Below, piece after piece: positions 6,202 through 59,200 of a stretch of 64,000 nucleotides of DNA (position 1 is its first letter; each line of letters starts with the position of its first letter). Position numbers and translations under genes: made by a program. Source of the DNA: an uncultured Candidatus Peribacteria bacterium. GTDB lineage: Bacteria > Patescibacteriota > Gracilibacteria > Peribacterales > Peribacteraceae. The stretch is taken from assembly GCA_964433325.1 (NCBI GenBank), contig CAYSPY010000001.1, positions 228,961 through 292,960 of the forward strand, in the 5' to 3' direction. The notes under the pieces were generated by a model that was not told the DNA's origin, searched no databases, and saw nothing but the letters and a program-made list of their open reading frames with translations.

Positions 6202-6304
6202 GATGAATGGGGTGGAAAGAACGTGCAGCATGCTACAGTTGAACACATTGGTTGTTCAATATGCTTCCTTCTATATAAGGTTGAAGCAGTGGGCGAATAA
6301 TGTC

Positions 6305-6622: not shown

Positions 6623-6662
6623 AGTCGTTCCATTTTCTCCAGTGTTGTTAAATCTGATGTTG

Positions 6663-8876
6663 TCATATTTCCAATAATTTCCAACTCGAAAAATCATCTT
6701 CTGACAACTTCTTGTCTTCATCTTGATAAACCATCCATCGCCCCTTAAACCTCTTTGAGTCAGTATTTGCCACAATCCCACCCCAGCAATTCTTGTGTTT
6801 CTTTATATACGATTGGAGACCGTCACTTTTCTCCTTCGCAAGTTTAATCTGCTGTCCGCTTTTTGTATCAAATAATCCAATTTTGCCATCCTTAAACTGC
6901 ACGATGAAATCGACAAAGAAAGGCTTATTCTCGCCATTTTCTTCATATGGAACTGCAAAATAGATTGATTCACGCTCGCCATTCTTGAACCACCATTTAA
7001 CTGCATCGGAAGCATCGAGAATTGCCATGAATTCGCTTTCTGTTTTCCATTCATCTTTTCGGTAATGATTTTGCATCACAGACTTGCCGCTCTTCATTTC
7101 CTCATAGTCGCCACTAAAGTTCAGTATTTCAGGAACCTCCCAATTTTGATTCACTTGTAGCTCATTGTCCTTCTTCTGAGTCTCAAGAATGTATTTTGTT
7201 TTGGTGCTGTCGAGCACATTTACGAAATGCTGCCTATTCTTCGGGCTAAGCACCATATTAATGATCTCAGAAAAACGTTCCGTGTACTGCATGCCAAGAC
7301 GCATTCGGAAGAAATAGTAGATAGCTTCCTTCACCCTTCCAATAGAACGATCTTCTGGATAGAACGGTGAAAGATTGTTTCTGACAAAGAAATCGTAGAG
7401 CTTCTGCAAATCGACCTCATCTCCAACATCAATTTTTGCTTCACCAGTAATCTTATGCGCAGTGAGCCTATCAACACTTTCGGCCTCGAAATCTGATATC
7501 AAAGATACTTCGACTTTCTGTCCCCTTATTTCGATTTTCTTTTCAAGATCGTACGCTTGCGCCTCTTTTAGGAACATTTTAATAAAGAGTGGGCTTAAGC
7601 GTGTTTTCTCGCGCAGTCGCAAACGATGAACCGATTCGAGTTTTATGGGCTTGTATTCATCAATGCGTTTACTTGTATAAATGGTGACGTAGCTACGTGC
7701 CATATCTTCTTTAATTTCAATATCAGTAAGATTGGTAAAAACATAGCCATGATTCAGAATCTTCTGTTCATAATGCCCAATGTCCGGCTGTGGCATTCGC
7801 ATAATGCGCCCGACGGTCTGTACCGAGAATGTTAGGCTCTTCCAGTCTCTAAATAACACTAGAATTTGTGCACGTGGGCAGTCCCAGCCGAGCGCAATGG
7901 CTTGCTTGAAAATCAGTACATCTGTTTCGTTATCGTTCTTTGAAATATTTTCCAAGTTTTCTTTTTCTTCAGAAAGATAAATTGCCAGCCTCCCATTTTC
8001 CGTGGTCATTCCGTAAGAATCTTTCAAGATACGTACAATCTCTTCTTTCATCTGATCTTCCTGCTGAGTCTTTCTGTCGGGAAGCTGTATGAGAAGAAGA
8101 GGATTAATATTTATTCCAGCTGCTTTATAGGCAGCAGCAAGCTCATCACGCTTTTTTAGCGCCAGTTGCAACACCATGGCATCCGTTCCATTAGCCAGAG
8201 CCGTTTTAAGGCTTTCCTTTTCGAGTACGTTCTTGAAATCTGGATTCAGTATCACTGATTTTTTTATCATCCCCTCTAGCTTTACGTCTTCCAGAGGTAC
8301 GGAAACAATTTCATCAGGGTTATTCATTATTGGCGTAGCCGAAACTTCTATAGTGAGCCTCGGCGCAATATCTGTAATAAGTTCTTTGGAAATTTCGCTT
8401 GTTGCGTGATGATGACTTTCATCAATAATAAGCACTATTTCACGCCCTTCGTCTTTCGTATTCTCAACGATTTTACTCAAATAAAACTCCTTCTCGTTCT
8501 CTTTAACGATTGTGTTCTTATCCTTCTTATTGATGCTTTCCCAGTTCAGAAACAAAATTTCATTTTCTCCGATTTGTTTATCTGTGAGGTCATCAAAATC
8601 AGAACACTCGAGCGCCCGAGAATCTTCGTAGTATTGTTCCAATTTTTGCTTGCTCTGAGTGTGGAGCTTCCGCGGTGCAGTCCAAACAAAGGAAAGGGGT
8701 ATCTTCATATCCCTATCACCTACAAGCTGTTTTAGAAACTCTGCTGTGATGATTGTTTTGCCCGAACCAGTAGGAGCCTTGAAAATCAGCTTCTTCTCCC
8801 CACTGCTTTTAAGTAATTCCTTGCTGCGGACGAGCAGTTTTTTGACGGCTGAGTTTTGATAGTCCTTGAGTTGCAT
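6663..8876 (-). CDS. res: Type III restriction enzyme, Res (helicase-nuclease) subunit
   Basis: First ATG at 8876. Walker A KAPTGSGKT, DEAH-like IIDESHH, helicase motif QTVGRIMR, and a C-terminal PD-(D/E)xK-like VDFIV...DTKSG. Located 12 nt downstream of mod. Confidence 0.8.
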   Translation of the reverse strand: MQLKDYQNSAVKKLLVRSKELLKSSGEKKLIFKAPTGSGKTIITAEFLKQLVGDRDMKIPLSFVWTAPRKLHTQSKQKLEQYYEDSRALECSDFDDLTDKQIGENEILFLNWESINKKDKNTIVKENEKEFYLSKIVENTKDEGREIVLIIDESHHHATSEISKELITDIAPRLTIEVSATPIMNNPDEIVSVPLEDVKLEGMIKKSVILNPDFKNVLEKESLKTALANGTDAMVLQLALKKRDELAAAYKAAGININPLLLIQLPDRKTQQEDQMKEEIVRILKDSYGMTTENGRLAIYLSEEKENLENISKNDNETDVLIFKQAIALGWDCPRAQILVLFRDWKSLTFSVQTVGRIMRMPQPDIGHYEQKILNHGYVFTNLTDIEIKEDMARSYVTIYTSKRIDEYKPIKLESVHRLRLREKTRLSPLFIKMFLKEAQAYDLEKKIEIRGQKVEVSLISDFEAESVDRLTAHKITGEAKIDVGDEVDLQKLYDFFVRNNLSPFYPEDRSIGRVKEAIYYFFRMRLGMQYTERFSEIINMVLSPKNRQHFVNVLDSTKTKYILETQKKDNELQVNQNWEVPEILNFSGDYEEMKSGKSVMQNHYRKDEWKTESEFMAILDASDAVKWWFKNGERESIYFAVPYEENGENKPFFVDFIVQFKDGKIGLFDTKSGQQIKLAKEKSDGLQSYIKKHKNCWGGIVANTDSKRFKGRWMVYQDEDKKLSEDDFSSWKLLEI

Positions 8877-8888
8877 AGTCAAAAGAGG

Positions 8889-10784
8889 TCATACAAATAT
8901 TCTACGATATACACGGAGTATGACCTCCGGTATAGGCAGTAATTTAACTTTCTGCTTCACATCCTCAAATTCCTCTTCAAATTCATCGTCACCAAGAGAG
9001 AAGATATATATGCAGAATTTTCCGTCAATCTTCGCTATGGCCTTCTTGAAATCGTCTATAGCGTCATGATCTAAAATTATTCCTGTATATCTATCCTTAT
9101 CGCGAAAAATTTTAAATTTATCGTTCGAAGTAACTCTTTCAAATGTATCTTCTTTTACACATAGCATTTCTGTCGCTTTTTGCGTGAAATCAACCTTATT
9201 TTTGTCAGTCACATTCGCAGGTACAAAAGTAGTTTTAAAATACTTAAGATTGCCACCTAAGCCCTGCTTTTTTCCGTTAGATTTTTTTATCCCATACAAA
9301 CGCAAAGAATTATCTTCTACTGTTACCTCTAGCTTATCGTAATTTTGTTGGTTAGCTTCTTTTATTTTTTCCAAATCATCTAAAACGACATCAATGTCTA
9401 CCAATACCTTTTCGTTTAATTTTGCCTCAAAAATAACATTTTTTTCTGTGCCGGTAAATTTATATCCACTAATAACATTCTTCATTCTGATTAGCGTAAC
9501 TTCTTGAGCTATATTACTTTCATTACTTGTACAGAGGATAAATTTTCTATTACCACCATCTTCTTTATTGAGCTCTAGTACTGCATGCCCAGTCGTCCCA
9601 GATCCTGCAAAAAAATCGAGAAAGATTCCGTTTTTATTACTAGATATTATTCTTAAGCAATCAATTACTGCATAAAGAGATTTTGGATAGTCGAAAGAAT
9701 TAGTGCTAGACATTATCTTTGATAATAGATTTGTTCCATATGCAGTAGCTGAATACTCAGTTTTGTCCCACCAAGTAAGGGGCAGCATGCCTTCTGAATT
9801 CATTCTCGCTTTTACGTAAACTGTAGGTTGCTTTCTTTGGTCCAATTTAACAGTCGTATCTGTTTTCATTTTTTCCATTACTGTCTCAATTCCCCATTTC
9901 CAGCAACGCAATTGACCGTGATCATCAACAGGATACTTAATAAACTCATCCTGGCCCGGTTCTTCAAGTAGCTTAAATTTTCGACTAATTGAGTCCCATT
10001 CAAGACTTGGGATCCTAAAGCCAGTTCCGTCTTTTTTAACGAAGAGTGGATATTGTAATCTCGGAGAAGACTCTGAATATCTTGCACGGAAATTTACCCA
10101 CTCAAAATTGCCAATTTCATCTTTATTCTTGTATCTTGCAATCTGATTTGAACTTCTTTGCAAACGCCCAATCGTCGTTTTTGATGATTTTCCATAAAAT
10201 AGTGCATACTCATGGGAAACTGCGAATCCGGCAGTAGTAGATCGACCTGAAGGGTTATTTTTAATGACCACCGTTCCAAGTCGATTTTCCTCACCAAATA
10301 TCTCGTTCATCATCAATGTCAGTGTTGCAATCTCATAGTCATCAATAGTTATAACAATAACCCCATCTTCTTTTAGTAAAGTTCTAGCTAACTTTAATCG
10401 CTTTTCCATAAAACTAAGCCACTTACTATGACGAAATGCGTCATTCCCATCTACATAGTCATTGTTATATTTCCAATTTTTTGCCCCTGTATTGTAAGGA
10501 GGATCTGCGTATATCGCATCAATCTTTCCTTTGTGTGTGTAATTAAGGATCGAAAGAGCATGAAAGTTATCTCCTTCAATTATTAGATTTGTTGGATCTT
10601 TCGGGTCATTAAGTATTTCCTTGTCCTTCACTTCTTCTAGAACAGGCAGCTCGGACTTGCACTGCACCAAAATGTCTTCTGGCTTTTCCTCCCATACAAG
10701 GCCATATTTTTTCCGCTTGCGTAATTGGTCAATCTCTTTGACCAGTTCATCTCGAGACCATGATGTGTAATCTTTTTTAGCCAT
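8889..10784 (-). CDS. mod: Type III R-M DNA methyltransferase, Mod subunit
   Basis: ATG 10784 (MAKKDYTSW...YGLVWEEKPE). Catalytic motif IYADPPYNTG precedes the AdoMet motif FFAGSGTTGHAV (beta-class order). Confidence 0.8.
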   Translation of the reverse strand: MAKKDYTSWSRDELVKEIDQLRKRKKYGLVWEEKPEDILVQCKSELPVLEEVKDKEILNDPKDPTNLIIEGDNFHALSILNYTHKGKIDAIYADPPYNTGAKNWKYNNDYVDGNDAFRHSKWLSFMEKRLKLARTLLKEDGVIVITIDDYEIATLTLMMNEIFGEENRLGTVVIKNNPSGRSTTAGFAVSHEYALFYGKSSKTTIGRLQRSSNQIARYKNKDEIGNFEWVNFRARYSESSPRLQYPLFVKKDGTGFRIPSLEWDSISRKFKLLEEPGQDEFIKYPVDDHGQLRCWKWGIETVMEKMKTDTTVKLDQRKQPTVYVKARMNSEGMLPLTWWDKTEYSATAYGTNLLSKIMSSTNSFDYPKSLYAVIDCLRIISSNKNGIFLDFFAGSGTTGHAVLELNKEDGGNRKFILCTSNESNIAQEVTLIRMKNVISGYKFTGTEKNVIFEAKLNEKVLVDIDVVLDDLEKIKEANQQNYDKLEVTVEDNSLRLYGIKKSNGKKQGLGGNLKYFKTTFVPANVTDKNKVDFTQKATEMLCVKEDTFERVTSNDKFKIFRDKDRYTGIILDHDAIDDFKKAIAKIDGKFCIYIFSLGDDEFEEEFEDVKQKVKLLPIPEVILRVYRRIFV

Positions 10785-11010
10785 AGAGGAATATGCGCAT
10801 TGTAGCGACTTCACCTGAGAAATAAACGCGATGGCATATTTCTTGTTTCATCTATATGAGCTTCCCCTCTCCGCACAAACCATCACAATTATCCCTAAAT
10901 TTATTATTGCTTTAAAATACTAAAACATTAAAGCACCCCTCGCAGGACATCATGTCTGTTAGGGGTCTTTTGCATAATGTAATCCGTTCCCGGACGACCA
11001 CCAGTACTCT

Positions 11011-15933: not shown

Positions 15934-17406
15934 CTATGCATCGTGCGTGACATCTCCATATTTCTTTTGTATCTCGTGCCAAAGGGATTGGGATTGAGCA
16001 GTAAAGGCATCAAATGGAGCATTGAATGCAACCCACTCAGGGTTGAGATACATTTTAGAATTATCGGACAACACTCGCTCTGACATAGGACCCCCCTTCT
16101 TGTTGTAGTCATACGCAAAGTTGGCACAATCGCGATCGGCAAAAAATGCTGAGCTGCTCAAGTTTTCCGTCATGCGGATAGGCTCACGAAAGCCCGGGAA
16201 TGCTGGCTTCATTTGGAGTGAATACACTCGATAGCCCAAGAGCGTCTTAATATTGGAATAATGACGCTGAATGTCAGAAGCTGCTTTACATACCAGACGA
16301 GAAGCGGCAAAGGGCAACCCACCTCGTAGCGTGTCGATCATTAAAATTTCATCAACGCTCCTTTTAAATTTTTTCTTGGGAGGATCGCGCCTGTAAGCCA
16401 TGTCACCACCCGTTACTCCGTTGTTTAGATACGAAAGAATTTGAGATCGATGTGCGTCGCTTGGAAATCGGGGAGGCTGCCAATACGTGAACCAAGCCAA
16501 CAATTCACCGTTATCATCCATCAAATAACGCCCTTCATACGTCGGCTCGGTTTCCTTTTTTTCTGCTGTGAAATCTTTATACATCTGCTCTCCAACAGAT
16601 GGCTGACCATTGACCGATTCATCAAACCCAAACACGAACACTCCTTTATTTGTCTTCCGCCTGAATTCTGCGGCTTTATCTGCCTTGTTATGACGCAGTA
16701 ATTCAATTGTTGCAGGTGTGAGCCAAGCCTTCTCATACGAAGTTCGTATTTTTGGCAGCAATTCATCCACATTTGATGGCGTAACGTTGCCATATACAGC
16801 CGTCCTGACACGCTCAAAGACTGCTCGCATTTTTGGGTCAATGCCAAACATATGCTCAAGATTGGTCACGCATTCTGCAACAGCTCCAATGTGTGATTGT
16901 GCACCATCACTACTAATGAGTGGCTGCATGGTAGACCTCAGCAAATCTTCGGGTTCATCTGATGCAATAATAGACCTACTTGTTTGCGCCTTACCCCAGT
17001 CAATCACGCCCCGTTCATGTGTAAACTGCTGCTCCGATTTTGAATTACTAACTGGGGTATAAATATCCCGCGTTGCCCACCAAGTATCGAATTCCTTATC
17101 GACTGCATCAGTAATCCTATCGATTAAATCCATATCAGTCAGTGGCTCTACCGGGTGCGGGAAGACGTACTCATTTGCCAACCGAAAGACGGTCGCTCTC
17201 CCTAAGCGCGCTGCAATACCTGACATATTTTCTTCGGACAGTACTTGTCGAAAGGCGCATTGAACATTGCCACAGAGACGAGTGAGCTCTTGCACTACTC
17301 TTCCTTCAATCACTGCTGCGACTTTGGATATTTCCATGTGTCGCTGCAACTGCTTCTGATCAAGCGACATTTCCTGAGTTGCCCTTGCTTCCATTCTCAT
17401 AACCAT
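15934..17406 (-). CDS. Hypothetical protein, paralogue A of 20397-21542
   Basis: Long ORF; the listed start is GTG and the first ATG is at 17406. Shares MAYRR..KKKFKRS...IDT, LLGYRVY, and the SDNSKMYLNPEW segment (SGNKCEQFEPRW in the paralogue) with the gene at 20397-21542. Confidence 0.65.
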   Translation of the reverse strand: MVMRMEARATQEMSLDQKQLQRHMEISKVAAVIEGRVVQELTRLCGNVQCAFRQVLSEENMSGIAARLGRATVFRLANEYVFPHPVEPLTDMDLIDRITDAVDKEFDTWWATRDIYTPVSNSKSEQQFTHERGVIDWGKAQTSRSIIASDEPEDLLRSTMQPLISSDGAQSHIGAVAECVTNLEHMFGIDPKMRAVFERVRTAVYGNVTPSNVDELLPKIRTSYEKAWLTPATIELLRHNKADKAAEFRRKTNKGVFVFGFDESVNGQPSVGEQMYKDFTAEKKETEPTYEGRYLMDDNGELLAWFTYWQPPRFPSDAHRSQILSYLNNGVTGGDMAYRRDPPKKKFKRSVDEILMIDTLRGGLPFAASRLVCKAASDIQRHYSNIKTLLGYRVYSLQMKPAFPGFREPIRMTENLSSSAFFADRDCANFAYDYNKKGGPMSERVLSDNSKMYLNPEWVAFNAPFDAFTAQSQSLWHEIQKKYGDVTHDA

Positions 17407-17615
17407 AGAAATATACACTCAAGAAGTAGTTTGGATCAGTTCCGTATGATATAGAGGTTAAAAACTTGTTAATACAACATTAACTGTACATGCTATCCAG
17501 AATCAGTAAAAAGTATTTATTGACTATATTTCTTACCATTTATTCCTTGTACAAACGGCTTATGGAAGAGCAATACAAGATGTAAGAGATATTTTACTTA
17601 TTACGAAAAAGGTTC

Positions 17616-17629: not shown

Positions 17630-20365
17630 ATGCAGTGGGATGAGTTTCGCTTTCATATTCGGCAACATTCCACTGACGATCAGAAATTGATCCGACAAGC
17701 GTTTGACCTAGGAAAAGAGGCTCATAAAGACCAAAAGAGGCAATCAGGGGAGCCCTATTTCACGCATCCCATCGCCGTTGCCCAGATTCTAGCCAATATG
17801 GGGGCAGACCCCGAAACAGTGATCGCGGCCTTATTACACGATACCGTCGAAGACACACCCCTAAAGCTCGAAGAAATTATTAGGCAATTTAGCCCTACTG
17901 TAGGCGCACTTATTGATGGAGTGACAAAACTGAGCGAAGAGGACTTTGAAGAACGAACAAACCTGAATAAACAAATTGAAACCCTGCGTAAGATGTTCAA
18001 CTTGATGCAACAAGACGTGCGCATCATGGTTATTAAACTGGCCGACAGACTGCATAACATGCAGACGATTTCCTTCCGGCCCCAGGAAAAGCAGGTAGCA
18101 GTGGCGAATGAAACGATGGATGTGTACGTAAAAATTGCAGACCGCCTCTGTATGCGTGATGTGCGCGATGAACTTGAAGGCATGTGTCTCGCAATTTTAG
18201 ACCCGATGAAATACGGCCGCATGACTGATGCATTAAAAAAGAATGAAGAAAAAAGCAAATCAATTCTGGAAGATATAAAGGTTGGACTCTCCGGGTTATC
18301 ATCACAAAATCCGTTCGACATTCACTACGAACGTAAGTCATGGGAAAGTTTAGAACAACAATTGGATGGCCTTGAACAATCGGGCCAGTCATCGACCATC
18401 AACTTTGCGATGCTCTGCGAGGATATTGATGGATGTTACAACGTTCTTGGCCACTTGCACCGCTTGTGGCTACGGGAATCACGCACCTTTGAAGACTTCA
18501 TTAATACACCAATTATCAATGGGTATAAGGCGATTCACACAACCATCATTCTGGAAAATGGTATCCGTGTCCGCTGTAAAATCCGCACACAAGAAATGGA
18601 AGACTATGCACACAGAGGGATAACAACCGTCTGTTTCGACCAACAGCAACGCGGCGTGTTGGAATATCTCCCGTGGACATCACGCATTTCTCCTCTTTCC
18701 AAAGATACAGAACGTCAGAGTCAGGAATTCTGGGAAAGTTTGCAAAGCGATATTCTTGGTGAATCCATATTCGTCTATGGCGATGCTGATCAAACGCAGC
18801 TATTACCAAAAGGTTCCACGGCGCTTGATGCTGTGTTCTATTTATATGGTGATCGTGGGCTTCGCACGAAAGAAATTTTTATCAACGGAAAACAAGTTCC
18901 GTTTTACGAAGAAGTTCCCTATGCCGGAACTATTCATGCGATATTCCAGAAAACATCCGATATGCACCTTGGCTGGCTTCAGTATAGCCGCACGGGTATC
19001 GGCACAGCACTTATCCGGAAGGGTCTCGCGAAACAAGATCCGGCAGTAAAACTCTCGATTGGGCAGAAGTTGCTCCAAGATTACTTTAGCAGCCATAATC
19101 GCGGCTTCATTAGTGAGCTTGATAAAAACTATATTGAACGATCTCTGAAAGAGAATGATTATCCCCACTTAGAAGAGTTGTATATGCGCATCGCAGAAGG
19201 GCGGGTACAACCTCAACAAGTCGAAGATGTGCTGTATGGCAAAAACAAGCGCAAAGAATCAGATTCGGATGCCCATAGCTACACCCTGTCATTGAACATG
19301 GCGAATGTAAGTAAAACGTCTATCCGTGATGCACTGCAACCCTACACCGTTAAAAACTTCCGTCTTACATCAAAAGAAGGTTCGAGTGAAATATATAAAT
19401 TAACACTGCTTCTTACCGATCATGACTACGACACGCTTACATCCACGCTTGATCATATTGTAAATGGACCCTATGAGATCCGCAGGAATAGCAGTGTCTA
19501 TAAAGCGAGTTTCTATAGCCTCGCTCTTTTTGCGCTGTGGGGGCTCGACCCGGCAGTTGCACACATCCTTCTGCATCAGCCAGGAATTGGTTCTGTTGAC
19601 CTAACTATCATCCGCTTCGTCTCACAAACGCTTCTGAGTGGCATCTTCCTCCTATGGATGCGCTCTCGTCAGCCACTGCCACAAGCGCGATTGTCTCTCA
19701 CTAACCCATCACTATGGCTCTCGGTCGTTTTCCTCTTCTGCGTGGCTCTGTCGTCGTATGGAGCGCTGCGGGGGACAGCACCATCGTACTATTCCATCCC
19801 GATGACATCGGCCGGTCTTATTCTTACAACGATTGTGAATCGTAAGCGTAAGTGGACATTGATCGCGACATGGCTATTGGTTATTGCAGGCATTGGCCTA
19901 TTGATCGGCTTTACCCCGGACTGGAACGGGCGCTTTATCACCGACACATTGCTGGCAGTAGTCGCCTTCACCGGGTTCTCGCTCATCAGTGAACGCTACA
20001 AGCGACAAGAAAAAGTATCACTGCGTGCTGCGCAGTATTTCTTCCTTCTGTCTGCATTCTGCACACTTCTCTCACTTACGTTGCTGCCAGTAGCAACCTT
20101 AGGGGATATTTCTCTACACAACTTCCTTTCCATCATTCTCTTTAGCGTCTTTATCTCTGGTCTCCCCTACTACATTTACTACTATCTCCTCTCACACAAA
20201 GAAATCGACTTCGTGCTTCGCTATTCATTCCTCATTATCCCAGCCACCGTCCTGAGCGAAGTAGCCTTTATTCACATTCCACATCCAGTGGTGTGGCCCG
20301 CTGCAATACTGGTGATTGCAGGAGCGTTCTTACCGCTTATGACATGGAGAAAAAAGCGGGCATAA
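17630..20365 (+). CDS. RelA/SpoT homologue (HD hydrolase, degenerate synthetase, TGS, ACT-like) fused to a C-terminal EamA/DMT-like membrane domain
   Basis: HD motifs FTHPIAVA, LLHDTVEDT, KLADRLHNM. Synthetase-like block YERKSWES...CYNVLGHLHRLW...INGYKAIHTTI...RVRCKIRT. TGS-like LLPKGSTALDAVFYLYG. From about residue 620 there are multiple hydrophobic helices with an EamA-like pattern. Confidence 0.8.
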   Translation: MQWDEFRFHIRQHSTDDQKLIRQAFDLGKEAHKDQKRQSGEPYFTHPIAVAQILANMGADPETVIAALLHDTVEDTPLKLEEIIRQFSPTVGALIDGVTKLSEEDFEERTNLNKQIETLRKMFNLMQQDVRIMVIKLADRLHNMQTISFRPQEKQVAVANETMDVYVKIADRLCMRDVRDELEGMCLAILDPMKYGRMTDALKKNEEKSKSILEDIKVGLSGLSSQNPFDIHYERKSWESLEQQLDGLEQSGQSSTINFAMLCEDIDGCYNVLGHLHRLWLRESRTFEDFINTPIINGYKAIHTTIILENGIRVRCKIRTQEMEDYAHRGITTVCFDQQQRGVLEYLPWTSRISPLSKDTERQSQEFWESLQSDILGESIFVYGDADQTQLLPKGSTALDAVFYLYGDRGLRTKEIFINGKQVPFYEEVPYAGTIHAIFQKTSDMHLGWLQYSRTGIGTALIRKGLAKQDPAVKLSIGQKLLQDYFSSHNRGFISELDKNYIERSLKENDYPHLEELYMRIAEGRVQPQQVEDVLYGKNKRKESDSDAHSYTLSLNMANVSKTSIRDALQPYTVKNFRLTSKEGSSEIYKLTLLLTDHDYDTLTSTLDHIVNGPYEIRRNSSVYKASFYSLALFALWGLDPAVAHILLHQPGIGSVDLTIIRFVSQTLLSGIFLLWMRSRQPLPQARLSLTNPSLWLSVVFLFCVALSSYGALRGTAPSYYSIPMTSAGLILTTIVNRKRKWTLIATWLLVIAGIGLLIGFTPDWNGRFITDTLLAVVAFTGFSLISERYKRQEKVSLRAAQYFFLLSAFCTLLSLTLLPVATLGDISLHNFLSIILFSVFISGLPYYIYYYLLSHKEIDFVLRYSFLIIPATVLSEVAFIHIPHPVVWPAAILVIAGAFLPLMTWRKKRA

Positions 20366-23424: not shown

Positions 23425-26400
23425 ATGTTTGATGCAGTCGACCCCAAACAGTCTTTCCCAGAACTTGAACGTGCCATTCTTCAGTATTGGCGCGAGGAAG
23501 ATATGTTTCGCAGATCCATCGAAGAACGAGCAGGGTGTGAGGAATTTAGCTTTTATGATGGACCTCCATTCGCGACAGGGCTCCCCCACTACGGCCACCT
23601 CCTAGCCGGCACTATTAAAGATGTCATCCCCCGCTACCAGACGATGCGTGGTAAGCGTGTGGAGCGCCGGTTTGGTTGGGACTGCCATGGGCTCCCGGTG
23701 GAGAACCTCATTGAGAAAGAGCATGACATTAAGAGTAAGCAAGATATTGAAGCGATGGGGATCGGCCAGTTCAATGAGCTCTGCCGTTCATCGGTGCTGC
23801 GCTATGCCAAAGAATGGCGAACAACGGTAGAGCGTACTGGCCGTTGGGTCGATATGGACTGGGATTACCGAACCATGGACCCCTCCTACATGGAATCTAT
23901 TTGGTGGGTGTTTCAATCCCTCGAGAAGAAAGGGCTCGTGTACGAAGGGTACAAGCCAATGCATGTATGCCCGCGATGTGTTACGCCGCTCAGCAACTTT
24001 GAGGTAACCCAAGGTTACAAGGATGTCACAGACCAATCCGCCACGGTAAAGTTCGAACTGAAGGGGGAAAAGACGCCAACCTACCTCCTGGCATGGACTA
24101 CTACGCCATGGACACTGCCCGGCAACCTGTTTGTTGCCGTTGGCCCCGATCTTTTGTATGTCCATGTTGAATACGAAAATAGTACATATATTGTCGCAGA
24201 AGAAAGGGCTGAACACGTTTTCAAAGACAAAGAATATACAATATCAGGTAAGCCCTTTAAGGGGTCGAGTTTGATAGGAAAAACCTACACGCCAGTATTT
24301 CTCTACTTTGCCGATTCCTACCCCGATGCATTCAGAGTGGTTGGTGGTGACTTCGTTTCAACAGCTGATGGTACGGGCTTAGTGCATATCGCACCTGGCT
24401 TTGGTGAAGATGACTTCCGCGTCGGACACCAAGAAGGGGTAGACATGCTCCAGCATGTAACGATGCAAGGACGTTTTGTATCTGCCGTCACAGATTTTGC
24501 AGGTGAGGACGTAAAGCCGATTGATGACCCATCAAAGACAGATCGTAAGGTAGTCGAATGGCTGGAGAAACACTCAAAGCTGTTTAGCAAAGAAAGCTAT
24601 CGTCACAGTTACCCTCATTGTTGGCGTTGCGATAGCCCACTGCTTAACTACGCAACGAGCTCGTGGTTTGTGAAGGTCGAAGACATTAAGGGGGACATGC
24701 TTAAGAGTAATAAAAAGACCGAATGGGTCCCTGCTCATATCCGTGATAGGCGATTTGGGAACTGGCTGGAAAATGCTCGCGACTGGGCTATTTCCCGCAA
24801 CCGCTACTGGGGTACACCGCTGCCTATCTGGCGAACGGATGATGCATCGGTCACCCAAGTTATTGGAGGACGCGATGATCTCTTTACTCACTGCCCTATT
24901 CGCTTTACCAAGCTGACGGCTGTGCGCCATGGCCAGGCGGAACATAATGTCGGTCACTTCTTCCAAAGTGCGATCCCCGGCGTAGACCTCACAGCCGAAG
25001 GGCAAAAGCAAGCAACGGCTGCCGGTGAGCATCTTAAAGGCCAGAATGTGAAGGTTATTTACTGCTCTCCGCTTAACCGTACCCAGCAAACAGCTAAGGC
25101 TATTGCACAGGCTACCGGGGCAACCGTCATTGTGGACGAACGCCTACGCGAAGTAGATGTTGGAGCACACGAAGGGACGCACTTTAACTTGAGCGATCGG
25201 GCAGTCATGGCCCTTAAGCGAAAGAAAAAGATGCAGGAGAATGCACCGGAAAGCCCCTATCACTTAGATGGAATGGAGAAATGGACTAGTGTGCAGAAGC
25301 GTATCGATGATTTCTTGGCCGATATCCTCCCACGTCACCGTGGAGATCATGTCGTGATCGTGACCCATGCGGACCCCCTCCGAAGCGTCCGGCATTTCTT
25401 TACCAAAGAAGATCCATTCAAGTTAAGCCACCAGCCAGAACCTCGGTTTGCCTCGCCTGAACATTTTTTCTGGGATCACACGACGCAACAGCAGATGGAC
25501 CTCCACAAGCATAGAATTGATGATCTTGCGTGGACGATCCCAGGGACTGGTACACCTGTAGAAGCAGTGCTTGTTCGCCATGGTGAGACCGATTGGAACA
25601 AAGATGGCAAAGTACATGGCGGGAATGCAGATGAACCTCTTAATGAGATCGGCAAAAAACAGGCAGAGGAATTAGCAGCCGCACTCAAAGGCCAGGTGTT
25701 TGACTGTGTTATCACGTCCGATCTAAAACGTGCTAAAGAGACGGCAAACATTCTTTCTAACAGCCTGGGATTACCAGAACCTGTAGAACTCGATGCACTC
25801 AGGGAGCGACATGTCGGTGTATGGAGTGGGCAGAAGGCAGCGGACCTACTCGAGCAATTCCCCCCTATTGAAGAAGGAATAGTGGCCCTACATCATGGAA
25901 CGCCCGAAGGTGGCGAAAGTCTGAGTGACTTTTTGTCGCGCATGCAGAAAGCGTACGACGAGATCAGCCGTACCTATGCGGGTAAAAAAATCCTCATTAT
26001 CTCGCACCGTGCAGTGATGCTGGGACTCCAGTCGATCGCTGGCAACATGAACTACCGCGATACCGCACTCCTCAAGTCTGCCAACTGTGAGCCAGTGCCC
26101 TGCATGATGTATCCCCTGCTTAAGCGCATCCCCGAAGTCCTCGACTGTTGGTTTGAAAGCGGGTCCATGCCATATGCACAGGGCAATCACCCCTTCGCAT
26201 ATCAATACGATCAAAAAATGTATTCACCAAAGGGTTTCCCTGCAGACTTCATTGCCGAAGGAATCGACCAAACACGTGGATGGTTCTATACGTTGACCGT
26301 CCTTTCAAGTGCACTCTATCAACAACCTGCGTTCCATCACTGTGTGGTGAACGGCATTGTCCTTGCAGAGGATGGTCGCAAGATGAGTAAGAAGCTAAAG

Positions 26401-27741
26401 AACTACCCAGACCCTTCGGAACTCGTAGAACGCCATGGTGCTGATGCTATGCGCTTTGCCCTCATGCACTCCCCTGCTGTCCGCGGCGAGGATTTGCGAT
26501 TCTCTGAAAAGACGGTCGAGGAAACACTGCGCACCATGCTGCTACCACTGTGGAACAGCTATAGCTTCTTTGTGACCTACGCAAACTTGGCGAAGTTTGA
26601 ACCCACTACCACACCTATTGCTTCTACGCATCCGCTCGACCGATGGATTTTGGCCGAAGTGCAAGATTTGGCTAATAGAATGACCGATCAGCTTGATGCA
26701 TATGACCTTTCTGCGACCTGTGATGAATTATTTGAAACGATCGATGCTCTCACCAACTGGTACATCCGCCTCTCTCGCCGTCGCTTTGCTGGTAAGGGTG
26801 CTGGAGGCGAGACAGAAGCTTTGGATATCGACGTATCAGATGCGGACAGGACCGATGCGCTCAACACGCTCCACGGGGCATTGCTCACCATCAGCCAGCT
26901 GCTCGCACCATTCTGCCCCTTTGTGACCGAGGCGATCTATTTGAATATCGGAGGCCAGCCACATGGGTCGGTTCACCTTACAAACTGGCCCGCGGTGCGA
27001 AAGCTGAGCAAGGATGAACAGCTTCTGATCGCGAAGAACAGGCTTTTACGTAAGGTGGTCTCGTTAGGGCTCAAGATCCGTTCCGAACGCACCATCAAAG
27101 TACGCACACCTCTTCGCTCAGCATCGTTTGCGTTCCCAGACTCTCTGCTAAAGGCATCCGAATTGAACGAGACTGACCTCGGGCTCCTCAAGCAGGAATT
27201 GAACGTGAAGGAGATCACTATTGCTGCCGACCCCGAAACACTCGGTGAACGTTTTGTCTTGGTCGATGCACGCAAGGCTGGGCCAAAACTCGGCAAACGA
27301 GTGCAAGAAGTGATCCAGGCAGGAAAGCGCGGCGAATTCACCCTTAATGCAGATGGCTCAATTGTTATTTTGGATGAAACCCTCGCTGCAGACGAAGCAG
27401 CCGTCATGTACCGCGGACGTGAAGGAAGTGATGTCGCAGCTGAGTCTGGTGTGGTCGTAAGCCTAGATGTATCTGTGAGCGAGGAATTGCAGATGGAAGG
27501 CGTAGCTCGCGATTTGATCCGTGCAATCCAGAAGCTGCGCAAAGAACAGGGCTATAGCCTGGGTGAGGTTGTCACCATCGGCATCAGCGGAGAGGTACAT
27601 GAGCTTCTAAACCTCTATAAAGCGCTCGTAGAACAGGAGGCGAGTGTGACGATCGGCACACTTGATGCCCACGCGCATGATGTAGTGATCGGTGATACCA
27701 TGGTAAAGATCCACCTCCCTCCAAAACCTGCTCATGGCTGA
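23425..27741 (+). CDS. ileS: Isoleucine--tRNA ligase (type 2) with two inserted histidine-phosphatase domains
   Basis: FYDGPPFATGLPHYGHLL (HIGH), CP1 TTTPWTLPGN, WAISRNRYWGTPLPIW, EVLDCWFESGSMPYAQ, KMSKKLKNYPDP. About 400 extra residues carry two RHG...H phosphatase motif sets (see findings). Confidence 0.9.
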   Translation: MFDAVDPKQSFPELERAILQYWREEDMFRRSIEERAGCEEFSFYDGPPFATGLPHYGHLLAGTIKDVIPRYQTMRGKRVERRFGWDCHGLPVENLIEKEHDIKSKQDIEAMGIGQFNELCRSSVLRYAKEWRTTVERTGRWVDMDWDYRTMDPSYMESIWWVFQSLEKKGLVYEGYKPMHVCPRCVTPLSNFEVTQGYKDVTDQSATVKFELKGEKTPTYLLAWTTTPWTLPGNLFVAVGPDLLYVHVEYENSTYIVAEERAEHVFKDKEYTISGKPFKGSSLIGKTYTPVFLYFADSYPDAFRVVGGDFVSTADGTGLVHIAPGFGEDDFRVGHQEGVDMLQHVTMQGRFVSAVTDFAGEDVKPIDDPSKTDRKVVEWLEKHSKLFSKESYRHSYPHCWRCDSPLLNYATSSWFVKVEDIKGDMLKSNKKTEWVPAHIRDRRFGNWLENARDWAISRNRYWGTPLPIWRTDDASVTQVIGGRDDLFTHCPIRFTKLTAVRHGQAEHNVGHFFQSAIPGVDLTAEGQKQATAAGEHLKGQNVKVIYCSPLNRTQQTAKAIAQATGATVIVDERLREVDVGAHEGTHFNLSDRAVMALKRKKKMQENAPESPYHLDGMEKWTSVQKRIDDFLADILPRHRGDHVVIVTHADPLRSVRHFFTKEDPFKLSHQPEPRFASPEHFFWDHTTQQQMDLHKHRIDDLAWTIPGTGTPVEAVLVRHGETDWNKDGKVHGGNADEPLNEIGKKQAEELAAALKGQVFDCVITSDLKRAKETANILSNSLGLPEPVELDALRERHVGVWSGQKAADLLEQFPPIEEGIVALHHGTPEGGESLSDFLSRMQKAYDEISRTYAGKKILIISHRAVMLGLQSIAGNMNYRDTALLKSANCEPVPCMMYPLLKRIPEVLDCWFESGSMPYAQGNHPFAYQYDQKMYSPKGFPADFIAEGIDQTRGWFYTLTVLSSALYQQPAFHHCVVNGIVLAEDGRKMSKKLKNYPDPSELVERHGADAMRFALMHSPAVRGEDLRFSEKTVEETLRTMLLPLWNSYSFFVTYANLAKFEPTTTPIASTHPLDRWILAEVQDLANRMTDQLDAYDLSATCDELFETIDALTNWYIRLSRRRFAGKGAGGETEALDIDVSDADRTDALNTLHGALLTISQLLAPFCPFVTEAIYLNIGGQPHGSVHLTNWPAVRKLSKDEQLLIAKNRLLRKVVSLGLKIRSERTIKVRTPLRSASFAFPDSLLKASELNETDLGLLKQELNVKEITIAADPETLGERFVLVDARKAGPKLGKRVQEVIQAGKRGEFTLNADGSIVILDETLAADEAAVMYRGREGSDVAAESGVVVSLDVSVSEELQMEGVARDLIRAIQKLRKEQGYSLGEVVTIGISGEVHELLNLYKALVEQEASVTIGTLDAHAHDVVIGDTMVKIHLPPKPAHG

Positions 27742-28129
27742 AGAAGGTCATCTATCGGCCCCAAGTAAACTCCTCCTGCGATTACTTCTTACGATCCTCC
27801 TTGTATATCTATTGAGTACATTTATGGATCGGACTTTTTTCCTATCTGGAGGGCTCCCTGCGTATATCATCATTGGATCTCTTATCACGTTAATGAACTA
27901 TATCGTCCGCCCAGTAGTGAACGTTCTCTTCTTCCCCTTTAAATTGATCTTTGGGATTATCGGGCTCATCGCGGCCAATGGTCTTATCCTCTGGATTACA
28001 CAAAAGATTGCTGAAAGGATGGATTCATCACTCCTTGTCTTGAATATCGACCAAGGAATTGGAGGCTGGCTTCTGTTGGCATTAATCTTAGGACTAGCGA
28101 ACTGGGTGATGAAGGAAGTGATTAGATGA
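27734..28129 (+). CDS. Small membrane protein, phage-holin-4 / DUF360 (YvlD-like) family
   Basis: Four hydrophobic helices. NYIVRPVVNVLFFPFKLIFGIIGLIAANGLILW pattern. Overlaps the ileS stop by 8 nt. Confidence 0.65.
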   Translation: MAEEGHLSAPSKLLLRLLLTILLVYLLSTFMDRTFFLSGGLPAYIIIGSLITLMNYIVRPVVNVLFFPFKLIFGIIGLIAANGLILWITQKIAERMDSSLLVLNIDQGIGGWLLLALILGLANWVMKEVIR

Positions 28130-34670: not shown

Positions 34671-36254
34671 ATGCGTAAAACCGTCGTTGCCCTCGACTCT
34701 CTCAATGTGATCTTCTGGATCCTTTCGATCTTGCTGCTGGCAGTGATGATCGTTGTGCCGTTCCTGCAGATTGATAGAAGCTTCAATATTACCCCCAGCT
34801 TATCGCTCTCTGGCGTTGTCTCGACGTGGGATATGTCGCTGGTCTCAGCACTGATGAACTCTGTGGTGCTGTCGGTGATTGCGTCGCTGTTTGCAATTGT
34901 ATGTGGCGGACTCTTGGGACGATTCATTGATAAGCGACCACTGTGGCTATTTGCCTTAATGATTGCGGTCTACAGCGTGAACCCTGTTGCTCGTGCCCTT
35001 TCGTACTTTGACCTCTTTCAGGTCTACACACCTTTTTACGATTGGACAGTAGCACTACTGGGACGACGGTTTGCGACAACTATTTTCCTGCCAGCGTTGA
35101 TCCTCGGCATGCATTACCTGCCGATTTACTTAATGCGAAATTTATTCGTCCTGAAAAAGCGCAACACCGCGCATGATTTACCGCCATTGATGGAAACGAT
35201 CTTCGATAATATTCCGCTGTGGGTACGGGGCTTCCCTATTTCCTTCGCCCTCTTTTTCCTCCTCACATTCTTTGATTACTGGGTCATTCAAGTGATTAGC
35301 GGAAACACGGTGCTCTACTGGACGCCACTCTTTATTCAAAAAGGGTTCCAGGCACGTGCTGTCAGCGAAGCAGCATTGATGATTGATATCGGACTTGTTG
35401 CGACTCTCGCTGCTTACATTGTTGCATTGGTACTCAGTTGGCTACTTCGACATGTGATTCGAAAACTCAAGCCATTGTGGTTTGCTGGCATCACTGGTCG
35501 TTCGAAGATCGCAGATGCGATAGGCACATTTCTTGCGTGGTGCATGCTGATTTTTGCCAGCTGGCCACTGATTGGAACCATCATCAAATTACTCCTCTCC
35601 CTGAGCTCCGATGTCCCAGTGCGTCTTGTTACCGATACCGACCGTGGCATTTTTATGATGGTGGTGATGGGTGTTGGCATGGGCGTTGTCTCTGCAACGC
35701 TGGGGCTGATTTTATCGATTGTGTACCAAGAGCACCCAACGAGAAGTAAGTGGTGGTTGCCGTCCCTCTACTTTTTAGCACTTGTCCCCGAGGCTGCGTA
35801 TGTCCTCTTTAGCTTGTTCATGACTGGCGCTGGGTTCATTCATGCTAACCCTGTGTGGCTCTTCTTTTTAATGATGTCGTTTAGCGTGCCGATGAGCTTC
35901 TTTTTGTGGGATAGCCTGTGGGGTGATATCGAGCGACAGAAATTGTGGATGCTTGGTTCGGCCATGGGCAAGCAGCCGATTAAATCGTTAGGCCTTGCGA
36001 TTAAAGAATGGACAAAGCCATGGGCGATCGTGTTCGTTGTTATTTTTTGGCTGACGATCGATAACGTCTTTATTACCGACTTCGCCGCTGGGCCTAAGTG
36101 GAAAACACTGTCGGCGGTGATCTTTAACTCCACCAAGCGTGGGTTTTCGGAAGAAGAGTTTTATTCGAGTGTCCTTGGAACGCTGTGCTTACTTGCAGTA
36201 ATTGGCGTGACCTTTGTGATGACACGAAAGCCGCAATTGCAAGCCAAAGAGTAG
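34671..36254 (+). CDS. ABC transporter permease, fused two-module type
   Basis: About 12 hydrophobic helices. Two EAA-like loops (AVSEAALMIDIG and ERQKLWMLGSAMG). Confidence 0.65.
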   Translation: MRKTVVALDSLNVIFWILSILLLAVMIVVPFLQIDRSFNITPSLSLSGVVSTWDMSLVSALMNSVVLSVIASLFAIVCGGLLGRFIDKRPLWLFALMIAVYSVNPVARALSYFDLFQVYTPFYDWTVALLGRRFATTIFLPALILGMHYLPIYLMRNLFVLKKRNTAHDLPPLMETIFDNIPLWVRGFPISFALFFLLTFFDYWVIQVISGNTVLYWTPLFIQKGFQARAVSEAALMIDIGLVATLAAYIVALVLSWLLRHVIRKLKPLWFAGITGRSKIADAIGTFLAWCMLIFASWPLIGTIIKLLLSLSSDVPVRLVTDTDRGIFMMVVMGVGMGVVSATLGLILSIVYQEHPTRSKWWLPSLYFLALVPEAAYVLFSLFMTGAGFIHANPVWLFFLMMSFSVPMSFFLWDSLWGDIERQKLWMLGSAMGKQPIKSLGLAIKEWTKPWAIVFVVIFWLTIDNVFITDFAAGPKWKTLSAVIFNSTKRGFSEEEFYSSVLGTLCLLAVIGVTFVMTRKPQLQAKE

Positions 36255-41771: not shown

Positions 41772-43535
41772 TTAAGCCATACTCTGGGCAACTCCCGGAA
41801 TATTGAGTGACCGGATGTACTTACGCAATCTGCCATACATTAGAGTTTTAGACTCCCTATCTAAGTGTTGCTCTGCATAGCGATTCAGCTGCTGCTCCAT
41901 AACCATTAACCGACTTTTCATTTCTTCGTACGGTGCTACGAGTTCGGGGACGGTGTGGCCAGGGAGCATCTGATATGCCGTAAAGAGCAAGCGCAACTTC
42001 GCAATTTCATCACGCACATGTTCGACAGAAATATGCGGATTAATAATTTCATGTGCAATGCGCTGGAAAACAGTTTCAATTTCTTGGAACTTTCCAATCA
42101 CGTGCATGCGCAAAAATGCTTCTTCGGTTTTGTGACTATCACGCATAAGTAGTGCATCTTGCAAACGTCCTTCCTGTTGCGCCAACAATACACTGAACTG
42201 GCGGAAAGGGCTTAGCTGCACACGGTCAAGCAATGCAAAATCCACATGTGTGACACGACGGAACCCCGCAGCAGATGCTTCTAGTGCAGAGGGAGACAGT
42301 GGGGCATCACCGAATAGTTGTTCAAATGCATGCATCTTGCTTGGGGCCTCTGCCACTGCACTACGAAATGAACGCATCCTCTCTTCGTCCCTTCGGATAG
42401 CACGTTCGATTGCATACGCATCAGACTGGTTAAATCCTCCCTTGCCCATCATTTCGGTAAGTCGCGATTGCAATCGTCGAATTGCCCCGACTGTTTTAGC
42501 CATCACCACACTCACATTTTCGCGACCACGGGTATCTTTTAATAATGCGGCGGCTTCTAACATCCCCTGGGCCTCTACTTTGTATATATTCTCACACGAC
42601 CCAAGTGCATCGGCCGCACCTGCCAATAATTGCTGTGCTTCGGACCGGAGACCATCGCGTGCTGCAGGCCTTTTCCACTCAACATCGAGTCGTCTATTGA
42701 ACGCATCGAGCTGCTGCTCGAGGCTTGCAAGCATCGTCACCTCTGCATCGTACTCATGTTCTTCGTGTGTTGTTTTACGATCCGCTGCAAATGCCGAATC
42801 GAATACTTGTACCGTACGTTGCTGGAATGGGTTCGTGTCTCCACTCACTCGTCCACGGAAGTAGAGGATATGGCCAAGTACTGACTGATCGACAGGTTGT
42901 TCGTTTTCGTAGCGACTTGCTACAGCATCACTTGGTTCATGCACGACAAATACACGTTGATGCCCGCGCTGCACAGAATGAGCACTCTCAAATACTTCTT
43001 TGAGCCTATTAATACATTCAAGTTGACGAAGACGGATACGTGCAAGTGGATCGCCTTTTGTTTCGCTGTCATCAACAAGGTGAAGGGATTCTGCAATTGT
43101 GCCCGTAATACGATCCGGACTTACCAGACATCCTTGGAGTGACAGTGTATGAACATTGATACCGCGGAAGCTAACCCCTCCCCGATCGTCGATGCTATAC
43201 GGTGGAACAATTAACTGATGGGAATAACAGAATGCTTCTTGGAATCGCTTGAAACGACAGTTGGGTAACGCAGTCCACACAGCATCACGAATCTTTTGCT
43301 CAGGGATATCACGCAATCGGACAAAATCCTGATTCCATTGTTCGATACCATAATCTTCGCGCTGTGGCTGGGTAGATGCGAAATCTTCAATTTCTTGTCG
43401 CGCCCCTAACAGAGCTTGAATGCGCCCCTCTTGCTTCGGATTCAACTCCGTTGGATCTTTAAAATACCCTGCACGCTTAAGTGCCTGTTCGTTAGACTCT
43501 CGAAGATCGTCGAAGGAGGGAACATTGAGCGCCAT
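41772..43535 (-). CDS. Hypothetical 587-aa protein
   Basis: GAGGA SD 5 nt upstream of the ATG; long ORF; helical C-terminal half; no recognisable motif. Confidence 0.65.
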   Translation of the reverse strand: MALNVPSFDDLRESNEQALKRAGYFKDPTELNPKQEGRIQALLGARQEIEDFASTQPQREDYGIEQWNQDFVRLRDIPEQKIRDAVWTALPNCRFKRFQEAFCYSHQLIVPPYSIDDRGGVSFRGINVHTLSLQGCLVSPDRITGTIAESLHLVDDSETKGDPLARIRLRQLECINRLKEVFESAHSVQRGHQRVFVVHEPSDAVASRYENEQPVDQSVLGHILYFRGRVSGDTNPFQQRTVQVFDSAFAADRKTTHEEHEYDAEVTMLASLEQQLDAFNRRLDVEWKRPAARDGLRSEAQQLLAGAADALGSCENIYKVEAQGMLEAAALLKDTRGRENVSVVMAKTVGAIRRLQSRLTEMMGKGGFNQSDAYAIERAIRRDEERMRSFRSAVAEAPSKMHAFEQLFGDAPLSPSALEASAAGFRRVTHVDFALLDRVQLSPFRQFSVLLAQQEGRLQDALLMRDSHKTEEAFLRMHVIGKFQEIETVFQRIAHEIINPHISVEHVRDEIAKLRLLFTAYQMLPGHTVPELVAPYEEMKSRLMVMEQQLNRYAEQHLDRESKTLMYGRLRKYIRSLNIPGVAQSMA

Positions 43536-59073: not shown

Positions 59074-59200
59074 AAAAGGTTTCCAGTTATTATAGCAGGA
59101 AGTAGGTTTTTGAGCCAGTTTTTGAGTATCAATGGACACCAAAAGTAGATAGGCGCAAGGTCCTGTTTCGGCCTGTGATTTGCTGCTAATCTGCAGTTCC

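Follow-up and report, generated by a model that had tools for sequence, protein, structure and literature searches.

Synthetase gene of the window

The stretch of DNA analysed here, referred to as the window, comprises 64,000 nucleotides of a 379-kb contig (CAYSPY010000001.1, positions 228,961 to 292,960; assembly GCA_964433325.1) from an uncultured Candidatus Peribacteria bacterium. It contains ileS, the gene for isoleucyl-tRNA synthetase (IleRS). The product is a type-2 (eukaryote-like) IleRS of 1438 amino acids (aa) in which two complete histidine phosphatase (His_Phos) domains are nested (Table 1). An earlier note, made from the sequence alone, had described an uninterrupted frame of 1438 codons with this composition. 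The frame is present as described, and every peptide quoted occurs in the translation in the order given. Pfam gives the domains that the note had expected, a split tRNA-synt_1, Anticodon_1 and two stretches of His_Phos_1 (E = 1.3e-81), and DUF5915 in addition. The block reported at 24898-26115 corresponds to residues 492-897 and is the inserted block.

The synthetase body is ordinary. The whole protein scores 858 bits against the NCBIfam equivalog for ileS (TIGR00392, cut-off 621.4), and its best sequence matches in the PDB are yeast and human cytoplasmic IleRS. It aligns to yeast and human IleRS in two blocks of about 480 residues each: residues 10-486 match chain positions 9-488, and residues 899-1383 match 519-1010. 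The motifs expected of a synthetase are in place: PHYGHLL (54-60), TTTPWTLPGN (225-234), WAISRNRYWGTPLPIW (454-469), MDLHKHRIDD (691-700), DCWFESG (907-913) and KMSKK (986-990). Among 120 family members PHYGH is kept in 99% and KMSK in 100%; the editing motif W224-G233 is invariant or almost so. An AlphaFold2 (AF2) model of residues 1-1200 has a mean predicted local distance difference test (pLDDT) score of 91.3 and a predicted template modelling (pTM) score of 0.87, with the inserts at pLDDT 90-98. Foldseek places the IleRS body of this model closest to yeast, Candida and Thermus thermophilus IleRS and Priestia megaterium IleRS2, with template modelling (TM) scores of 0.69-0.86. There is no second ileS within the 64-kb window. 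Judged by its sequence, the gene probably encodes a working type-2 IleRS, the only one of the cell.

Other type-2 enzymes (yeast 7D5C and 8WND; P. megaterium IleRS2 8C8U) share with this protein the HIGH signature, the connective peptide (CP) core, CP1, CP2, remnants of CP3, KMSKS, the anticodon-binding domain and DUF5915. They differ from it in CP3, which is here broken twice by complete enzyme domains of 185-195 aa. No PDB entry among the sequence and Foldseek matches spans an IleRS with a His_Phos domain.

Position of the inserts

In yeast IleRS, CP3 spans residues 459-526 and the CP2-CP3 linker is 453-ARDWNVSRNRYWG-465 (PMC7955072). Because of these published boundaries both insertion points of the window protein can be assigned, by alignment, to CP3, a small connective peptide of the Rossmann fold. 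The earlier note had placed the inserts in the catalytic core; they do lie in the catalytic region, but in CP3 and not in the core strands of the fold. It had also stated that IleRS normally bridges the two flanking points with a short segment, and this is so: about 30 residues in yeast are replaced by about 412 here.

When residues 493-688 and 713-895 are removed in silico, the remainder aligns to human, Candida and yeast IleRS without a break, apart from two gaps of 2 residues. The short piece between the inserts, MDLHKHRIDDLAWTIPG, which had been recognised as IleRS-like, then also aligns to these three enzymes, at the human/yeast motif 'DLHRxxIDxLTIPS'. Four of its residues (D692, L693, H694 and D699) are invariant in the 120-member alignment. 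The CP2-CP3 linker lies directly upstream of the first insertion site. In yeast IleRS this linker lines the pocket of the inhibitor reveromycin A, which sits in the tRNA-binding site (PMC7955072).

Table 1. Coordinates of ileS and its parts in the window (CP1 boundaries set from yeast numbering, PMC7955072)
Feature	Position	Strand	Basis
ileS, 1438-aa type-2 IleRS with two nested His_Phos domains	23425..27741	+	ORF (open reading frame), TIGR00392, PDB matches, AF2, Foldseek
HIGH signature PHYGHLL, residues 54-60	23584..23604	+	99% kept in 120 members
CP1 editing domain, about residues 197-400, including TTTPWTLPGN	24013..24624	+	T. thermophilus editing-domain chains 1wk8, 1ue0
CP2-CP3 linker and first part of CP3, WAISRNRYWGTPLPIW ... 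GGRDDLFTHCPI, residues 454-492	24784..24900	+	aligned to yeast 453-ARDWNVSRNRYWG-465 and onward
Insert 1, His_Phos_1, residues 493-688; site 1, between the WxISRxRxWG and DLHK motifs of CP3	24901..25488	+	PF00300
CP3 segment kept between the inserts, QQMDLHKHRIDDLAWTIPGTGTPV, residues 689-712	25489..25560	+	alignment to human/yeast 'DLHRxxIDxLTIPS'
Insert 2, His_Phos_1, residues 713-895; site 2, between DLHK and DCWFESG	25561..26109	+	best Pfam stretch 715-888
Second Rossmann half (RIPEVLDCWFESGSMPYAQ, GIDQTRGWF) to KMSKK 986-990	26110..26394	+	alignment to yeast 519-614
Anticodon-binding domain, residues 1072-1231	26638..27117	+	Pfam Anticodon_1, 86.8 bits
C-terminal DUF5915 of type-2 IleRS, residues 1255-1429	27187..27711	+	Pfam PF19302, 71.4 bits

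Nature of the inserts

The Pfam model PF00300 scores 273 bits over both inserts together (gathering threshold 21.7), and each insert singly matches many branch-1 histidine phosphatase models. Insert 1 carries VRHGQAEHN (500-508), SPLNRTQQTA (548-557), LREVDVGAHEG (574-584) and VTHADPL (646-652). The corresponding motifs of insert 2 are VRHGETDWN (717-725), SDLKRAKETA (765-774), LRERHVGVWSG (792-802) and ISHRAVM (859-865). The earlier note had read the full catalytic set in both inserts as a mark of selection, and the family bears this out. In the 120 members the inserts are nearly free of gaps and the catalytic residues are 99-100% conserved: R501, H502, N508, R552, E576 and H648 of insert 1 are invariant, as are R718, H719, N725, R769 and E794 of insert 2, with H861 kept in 99%. 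Insert 1 also has a conserved, family-specific C-terminal extension (FTKEDPxKLSHQP...FFWDH). A recent tandem duplication of one insert is ruled out because the two are only 31% identical, and that over 86 aa.

Modelled alone, the insert block reaches pLDDT 89.3 and pTM 0.83. Foldseek assigns it to the PGM-like alpha/beta fold with probability 1.00 to PhoE, PspA and GpgP (TM 0.73-0.81). The best scores are those of PhoE (TM 0.78-0.81) and PspA (0.78-0.80; root-mean-square deviation 2.0 A), against 0.6-0.7 for cofactor-dependent phosphoglycerate mutases (dPGMs). The inserts are about 185-195 aa long, whereas dPGMs have about 230-250 aa with mutase-specific elements. By modelled fold and by length they are thus predicted to be short phosphatases of the PhoE/PspA type rather than dPGMs. 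The earlier note had left phosphatase and mutase side by side; the first is favoured by the TM scores, and the second falls with the missed dPGM cut-offs. The pTM and pLDDT values, which give an indication only, suggest that the inserts pack against each other and against the synthetase and are not loose appendages.

Scanned singly, neither insert reaches the curated cut-off of any named enzyme. For dPGM, insert 1 scores 114 bits with dPGM_arch (cut-off 225) and the two inserts score 37 and 50 bits with TIGR01258 (81.7); with other dPGM equivalogs, whose cut-offs are 261-421, the scores are 27-77 bits. The two inserts score 89.5 and 117.9 bits for the alpha-ribazole phosphatase CobC (TIGR03162, 162.9), 87 and 76 bits for the phosphoserine phosphatase PspA (NF045917, 350), and 31 and 27 bits for SixA (TIGR00249, 74.5). 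The whole protein appears to pass for CobC with 197 bits; this is not a true match because the score is the sum of two domains.

Several known systems resemble the inserts in part. The short phosphatases of broad specificity, Geobacillus PhoE/YhfR (1H2E, 1EBB) and Hydrogenobacter PspA (4IJ5), have the same fold and length and the full R-H-N-R-E-H set. They are only 25-27% identical to the inserts and are free-standing, whereas the inserts are nested in another enzyme. PhoE and PspA function as dimers, and in the model the two inserts form one packed unit. The RNase H/acid phosphatase family (NF005567, PRK07238; the Mycobacterium tuberculosis Rv2228c type) joins a CobC-like His_Phos domain to a nucleic-acid enzyme. 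Its model is among the best NCBIfam matches of both inserts, yet at 93-104 bits against a cut-off of 326, and that protein is a terminal fusion with a different partner. Another IleRS with a nested accessory enzyme is recognised by NF040702 (ileS_w_GNAT, 'isoleucine--tRNA ligase, N-acetyltransferase domain-containing'). The window protein scores 261 bits with this model (cut-off 1999) and has no GNAT match in Pfam. The scan of the window protein returned no curated NCBIfam model for a His_Phos-bearing IleRS.

The stand-alone histidine phosphatase gene that had been reported at 1640-2536 is present on the - strand (PF00300, 78 bits). It encodes a 298-aa His_Phos_1 protein with an intact RH...R...E...H set and a long extra segment near its N-terminus. 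The protein is diverged from both inserts, scoring 29-47 bits with hidden Markov models (HMMs) of these.

Conservation and copy number in Peribacteria

The earlier note had proposed an architecture search for other IleRS proteins with the same inserts. A protein search over 5.8 billion sequences returned at least 120 clusters of 1391-1640 aa, 56-72% identical to the window protein and with a common Pfam set; those with a taxon name belong to Peregrinibacteria, Peribacteraceae or Patescibacteria. When GTDB species genomes were scanned with a profile of the inserts alone, the same inserts were found in about 53 Peribacteria/Peregrinibacteria genomes, the nearest being 82% identical. Misassembly, which had been named as a possible reason to discard the finding, does not account for it: a chimera is ruled out because the same junctions occur in these independently assembled species genomes and in the clusters.

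Conservation was compared by region as the mean frequency of the commonest residue in the 120 members. It is highest in the two halves of the catalytic domain (0.77-0.79), followed by insert 1 (0.67), the C-terminal domain (0.62) and insert 2 (0.55). This pattern of sequence conservation argues against a decaying paralog.

Copy number was determined for each Peribacteria locus with segment HMMs on the fetched loci. Most genomes have the layout of the window, in which insert 1 (HP1) and insert 2 (HP2) are separated by the CP3 linker (N-HP1-linker-HP2-C). HP1 is present in every Peribacteria locus examined and is the only copy in seven (L042, L044, L045, L047, L050, L051 and L053). In a neighbour-joining tree of the insert-free core, which lacks support values and is indicative only, the one-copy forms are scattered among two-copy relatives. 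This suggests that HP2 may have been lost repeatedly and HP1 never. Three loci (L014, L019 and L026) have three domains, confirmed by Pfam for L014. Their extra domain would be of a single, older origin, because it is 80-82% identical among the three genomes and 45-51% identical to the adjacent HP2.

Two related loci have irregular frames. At L026 (6416-11417) ileS is split into two ORFs, possibly by a frameshift or a sequencing error. At L010 (3288-10871) the open frame that reads into ileS begins upstream of it and has 2528 codons, either through a fusion or simply for want of a stop codon.

Nested phosphatases in IleRS of the Candidate Phyla Radiation

Nested His_Phos domains are widespread in the IleRS of Candidate Phyla Radiation (CPR) bacteria and are not confined to this genome. 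An exhaustive HMMER search of 1.84 billion representatives was made with residues 380-1010, and the matches were sorted locally by five IleRS motifs: A (WxISRxRxWGxPxP), L (DLHRxxID), B (DxWFESG), C (GxDQxRGW) and K (KMSKS). Many other IleRS have one to three His_Phos copies, at four sites. Site 1, between A and L (A-HP-L), is the commonest. Less common are site 2 between L and B (L-HP-B), site 3 between B and C (B-HP-C), and site 4 after K, ahead of the anticodon-binding domain. The sites are used singly or combined (1+2, 1+4, 2+3, 2+4, 3+4 and 2+3+4).

Different groups use the sites differently. The relatives of the L081 IleRS have one domain at site 1 (120/120 of those listed), and the named ones are Paceibacterota or Minisyncoccia. 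Relatives of the protein P0174 use all four sites, with combinations that include 2+4, 3+4 and 2+3+4; PF00300 is found in 107 of the 120 listed, and the named ones are Gracilibacteria or Peregrinibacteria. At least one copy is present in 120/120, 107/120 and 120/120 of the proteins listed for three groups. Plain type-2 IleRS, about 1030-1100 aa long, are confined to the lowest ranks of the relatives' lists. The R-H-N-R-E-H set is intact in 111/126, 108/116 and 118/120 embedded domains of three wider sets. Embedded domains score 118-315 bits within a site and about 70-100 bits across sites, against about 75-88 bits to free-standing homologs; domains from two different sites resemble each other no more than they resemble the free-standing forms. 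No ileS was seen next to the free-standing homologs at L067 or L073, and no cultured organism with the architecture occurs among the named matches.

Occurrence in Saccharibacteria is suggested only by the genome labels of L075 and L081. The L075 IleRS (5779-9819, + strand, 1346 aa) has retained a CxxC...CxxC zinc knuckle, which flanks its single His_Phos domain; it also has a low-complexity insertion rich in Gly, Asp, Glu and Asn in CP1. L081 is labelled 'Candidatus Saccharibacteria', which is at odds with its closest named IleRS relatives, Paceibacterota/Minisyncoccia; the bin may be mislabelled or the gene transferred.

Other enzymes are nested in these synthetases as well. Among the 120 listed relatives of P0174, GNAT acetyltransferases occur in 16, DUF559 in five, and P-loop kinases (AAA_33/AAA_18) with an intact Walker A motif, adjoining the phosphatase, in five. 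GNAT-bearing Gracilibacteria/Peregrinibacteria relatives often also carry His_Phos; the window protein has no GNAT. Five proteins (P0352, P0337, P0278, P0251 and P0290) combine His_Phos with a P-loop kinase, GNAT, serine hydrolase or DUF559. The AAA_33/AAA_18 kinase is found in P0337 and P0352, the latter also matching Zeta_toxin, and the serine hydrolase in P0251. P0352 has its DUF559 at residues 294-399, apparently inside CP1. In P0336 a non-homologous phosphatase occupies the same host enzyme: two tandem HAD phosphatases lie at site 3 (residues 567-733 and from 769) without His_Phos, and HAD motif I (DxDG[TV]) is intact (IFFDFDGV, IFFDNDGV).

The earlier note knew of no described aminoacyl-tRNA synthetase of this architecture. 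No account of an IleRS carrying a histidine phosphatase turned up in full-text literature searches or in the Peribacteria genome paper, and the GNAT form is the only one that NCBI curates; the architecture itself is not unique, being widespread in CPR. The sequences are already public under automatic names, their parts belong to well-known families, and nested or appended domains in synthetases are of a known kind. The main new result is the pattern of one to three copies at four sites across CPR IleRS.

Proposed function

From the architecture, insertion points, conservation, fold class and distribution described above, we infer that the inserts are active phosphomonoesterases kept in cis with IleRS by selection. 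This is put forward tentatively, as regards activity, coupling to IleRS and above all substrate. The histidines of the RHG motifs (H502 and H719) would act as nucleophiles; a phospho-histidine intermediate would form and phosphate would then be released from a phosphomonoester. Selection for the placement in cis is suggested because at least three large CPR groups use the same host, with four insertion sites, because at least one copy is retained almost universally and is in one case replaced by a non-homologous phosphatase, and because neighbouring housekeeping genes have no nested enzymes. Alanyl-tRNA synthetase (AlaRS), UvrA and Rel of the window have ordinary architectures.

The substrate would be some phosphorylated molecule that is encountered where aminoacylation takes place. 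The likeliest candidate is a tRNA acceptor end with a 3'(2')-phosphate or pyrophosphate, which would be cleared before charging; a nucleotide by-product is the second candidate. Removal of a terminal phosphate leads on circumstantial grounds: CP3 adjoins the CP2-CP3 linker, P-loop kinases and HAD phosphatases occur in the IleRS of relatives, and the lesion has a documented precedent, in that toxSAS toxins transfer a pyrophosphate to the tRNA 3'-CCA end, which blocks aminoacylation (PMC11559606; bioRxiv 10.1101/2021.04.30.441581).

A possible working analogue is CP1, the editing domain of class Ia synthetases, a hydrolytic Rossmann insertion that acts in cis on the tRNA acceptor end. All IleRS, ValRS and LeuRS have CP1, which cleaves aminoacyl esters. 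In contrast, the His_Phos inserts are lineage-specific, lie in CP3 and would hydrolyse phosphate esters; their action on tRNA is putative.

Several points weigh against this reading and a tRNA end as the substrate. We know of no His_Phos member that acts on an RNA 3' end, and the nearest characterised relatives act on small metabolites. If the task were general repair of tRNA ends, many synthetases or the CCA-adding enzyme should carry such domains, and not IleRS alone (the comparison among synthetases covered the AlaRS of the window), and the choice of IleRS as host is left unexplained. Insert 2 seems dispensable because it is absent from seven scattered Peribacteria lineages, an apparent repeated loss in the tree without support values. 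The hosting of GNAT, DUF559 and serine hydrolase domains fits permissive loops as well as it fits a set of tools for the tRNA end.

In a broader version, the CPR IleRS would be a platform for a built-in kit for acceptor-end repair or defence against toxins, made up of His_Phos or HAD phosphatases and, in some lineages, of P-loop kinases, GNATs and esterases. Such a kit would reverse chemical damage or toxin modification of the tRNA 3' end or of aminoacyl-tRNA, for example pyrophosphorylation of the toxSAS type. A synthetase would then have a second quality control in cis. We consider this extension unlikely.

The strongest rival is a housekeeping phosphatase for small molecules of serine, cofactor or sugar-phosphate metabolism, parked in permissive IleRS loops without any link to aminoacylation. 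In streamlined CPR genomes it would then have been fused into loops on the surface of an essential protein whose gene is expressed constitutively. The nearest characterised relatives are indeed metabolic (PhoE, PspA, CobC, GpgP and a riboflavin-pathway phosphatase). The loops appear permissive because this IleRS clade tolerates unrelated GNAT, DUF559 and serine hydrolase domains; insert 2 has apparently been lost several times, and domain position is flexible. Against this rival stand the common host, with four sites, of at least three large CPR groups, the presence of a copy in nearly all proteins listed there, and the HAD phosphatase that takes its place in P0336. The other large housekeeping proteins of the window have no nested enzyme, and the high pTM suggests an integrated rather than a tethered arrangement. 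The explanation is possible but somewhat improbable.

A regulatory module is quite unlikely. It would bind, or be phosphorylated by, a phospho-metabolite or alarmone (2,3-bisphosphoglycerate/3-phosphoglycerate or a (p)ppGpp-like nucleotide) and tune IleRS through CP3 and KMSKS. Conserved phosphate-binding and catalytic residues would suit such a role, as would the modelled docking of the inserts beside the active-site entrance; alarmone signalling is probable in the organism, which encodes a long RelA/SpoT homolog 3 kb upstream of ileS. Four insertion sites are hard to square with one allosteric route, however, and the conserved proton-donor Glu and second His point to turnover over mere binding. 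We know of no aminoacyl-tRNA synthetase in which a His_Phos domain serves as an allosteric sensor.

That a glycolytic dPGM is built into IleRS is very unlikely. The Joint Genome Institute (JGI) automatically names several members 'isoleucyl-tRNA synthetase/bisphosphoglycerate-dependent phosphoglycerate mutase', and dPGM_arch is the best NCBIfam match of insert 1, but the bit scores, the length and the TM scores given above all point away from dPGM. A misassembled chimera, or a redundant ileS paralog gathering junk beside a canonical copy, can be practically dismissed: the look for a second ileS covered 64 kb of the 379-kb contig, and one related metagenome-assembled genome (L026) has the gene in two ORFs, but the ORF of the window is uninterrupted and has no rival copy there, the junctions are shared by independent genomes, and core motifs and catalytic residues of the inserts are strongly conserved.

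The finding has consequences of two kinds. Aminoacyl-tRNA synthetases belong to the most thoroughly studied enzymes, and the nested domains known in them serve editing or tRNA binding. An intact phosphatase in the catalytic region of IleRS across much of CPR suggests that phosphate-ester chemistry is wanted there, for a reason not yet described. If the tRNA end is the target, this would be a new in-cis quality control aimed at the tRNA and not at the amino acid, and it might also counter tRNA-modifying toxins. If the inserts are instead a parked metabolic enzyme, automatic fusion names with PGM or CobC can yield false 'PGM present' or 'CobC present' calls in metabolic reconstructions of CPR bacteria. 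The architecture should be of interest to synthetase and CPR specialists.

Neighbouring genes and other features of the window

The ileS gene of the window lies between an M20 peptidase gene upstream and a gene for a holin-like protein downstream. At a related locus (L001) it is accompanied by pentose-phosphate genes and ruvA, and no conserved partner of ileS is shared between the two. The product of the downstream gene (27734-28129, + strand) is a Phage_holin_4_2 membrane protein of 131 aa. The start of this gene lies 8 nt before the ileS stop, which makes translational coupling of the two probable.

The RelA/SpoT homolog (17630-20365, + strand, the same as ileS) has 911 aa with HD_4 and RelA_SpoT domains, and makes alarmone metabolism probable in the organism. 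The AlaRS gene (59180-61072, +) encodes a short protein of 630 aa with tRNA-synt_2c and tRNA_SAD; no further C-terminal domain was detected. A tmRNA gene (47501-47911, +; 96 bits) has an unusually long predicted tag peptide, ANRNFLGTRFSKVKAAFTAPSFGLTLAV.

At the left end of the window is the C-terminal part of a serine recombinase (187-1308, +; Recombinase and Zn_ribbon_recom), in which no resolvase domain was detected. Its frame runs into tRNA-Gln(CTG) (1277-1350, -), and tRNA-Arg(TCG) (1441-1517, +) adjoins; the junction may be the edge of an integrated element. Nearby is an AAA_21/AbiEii-like ATPase (2611-3357, +), followed by a ResIII helicase and an N6_N4 DNA methylase (6663-10814, -); the latter two resemble a type III restriction-modification pair. 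These genes suggest a small defence-gene neighbourhood. Three ORFs of 494, 527 and 587 aa (15934-17418, -; 34671-36254, +; 41772-43535, -) have no Pfam match at E <= 1e-5.

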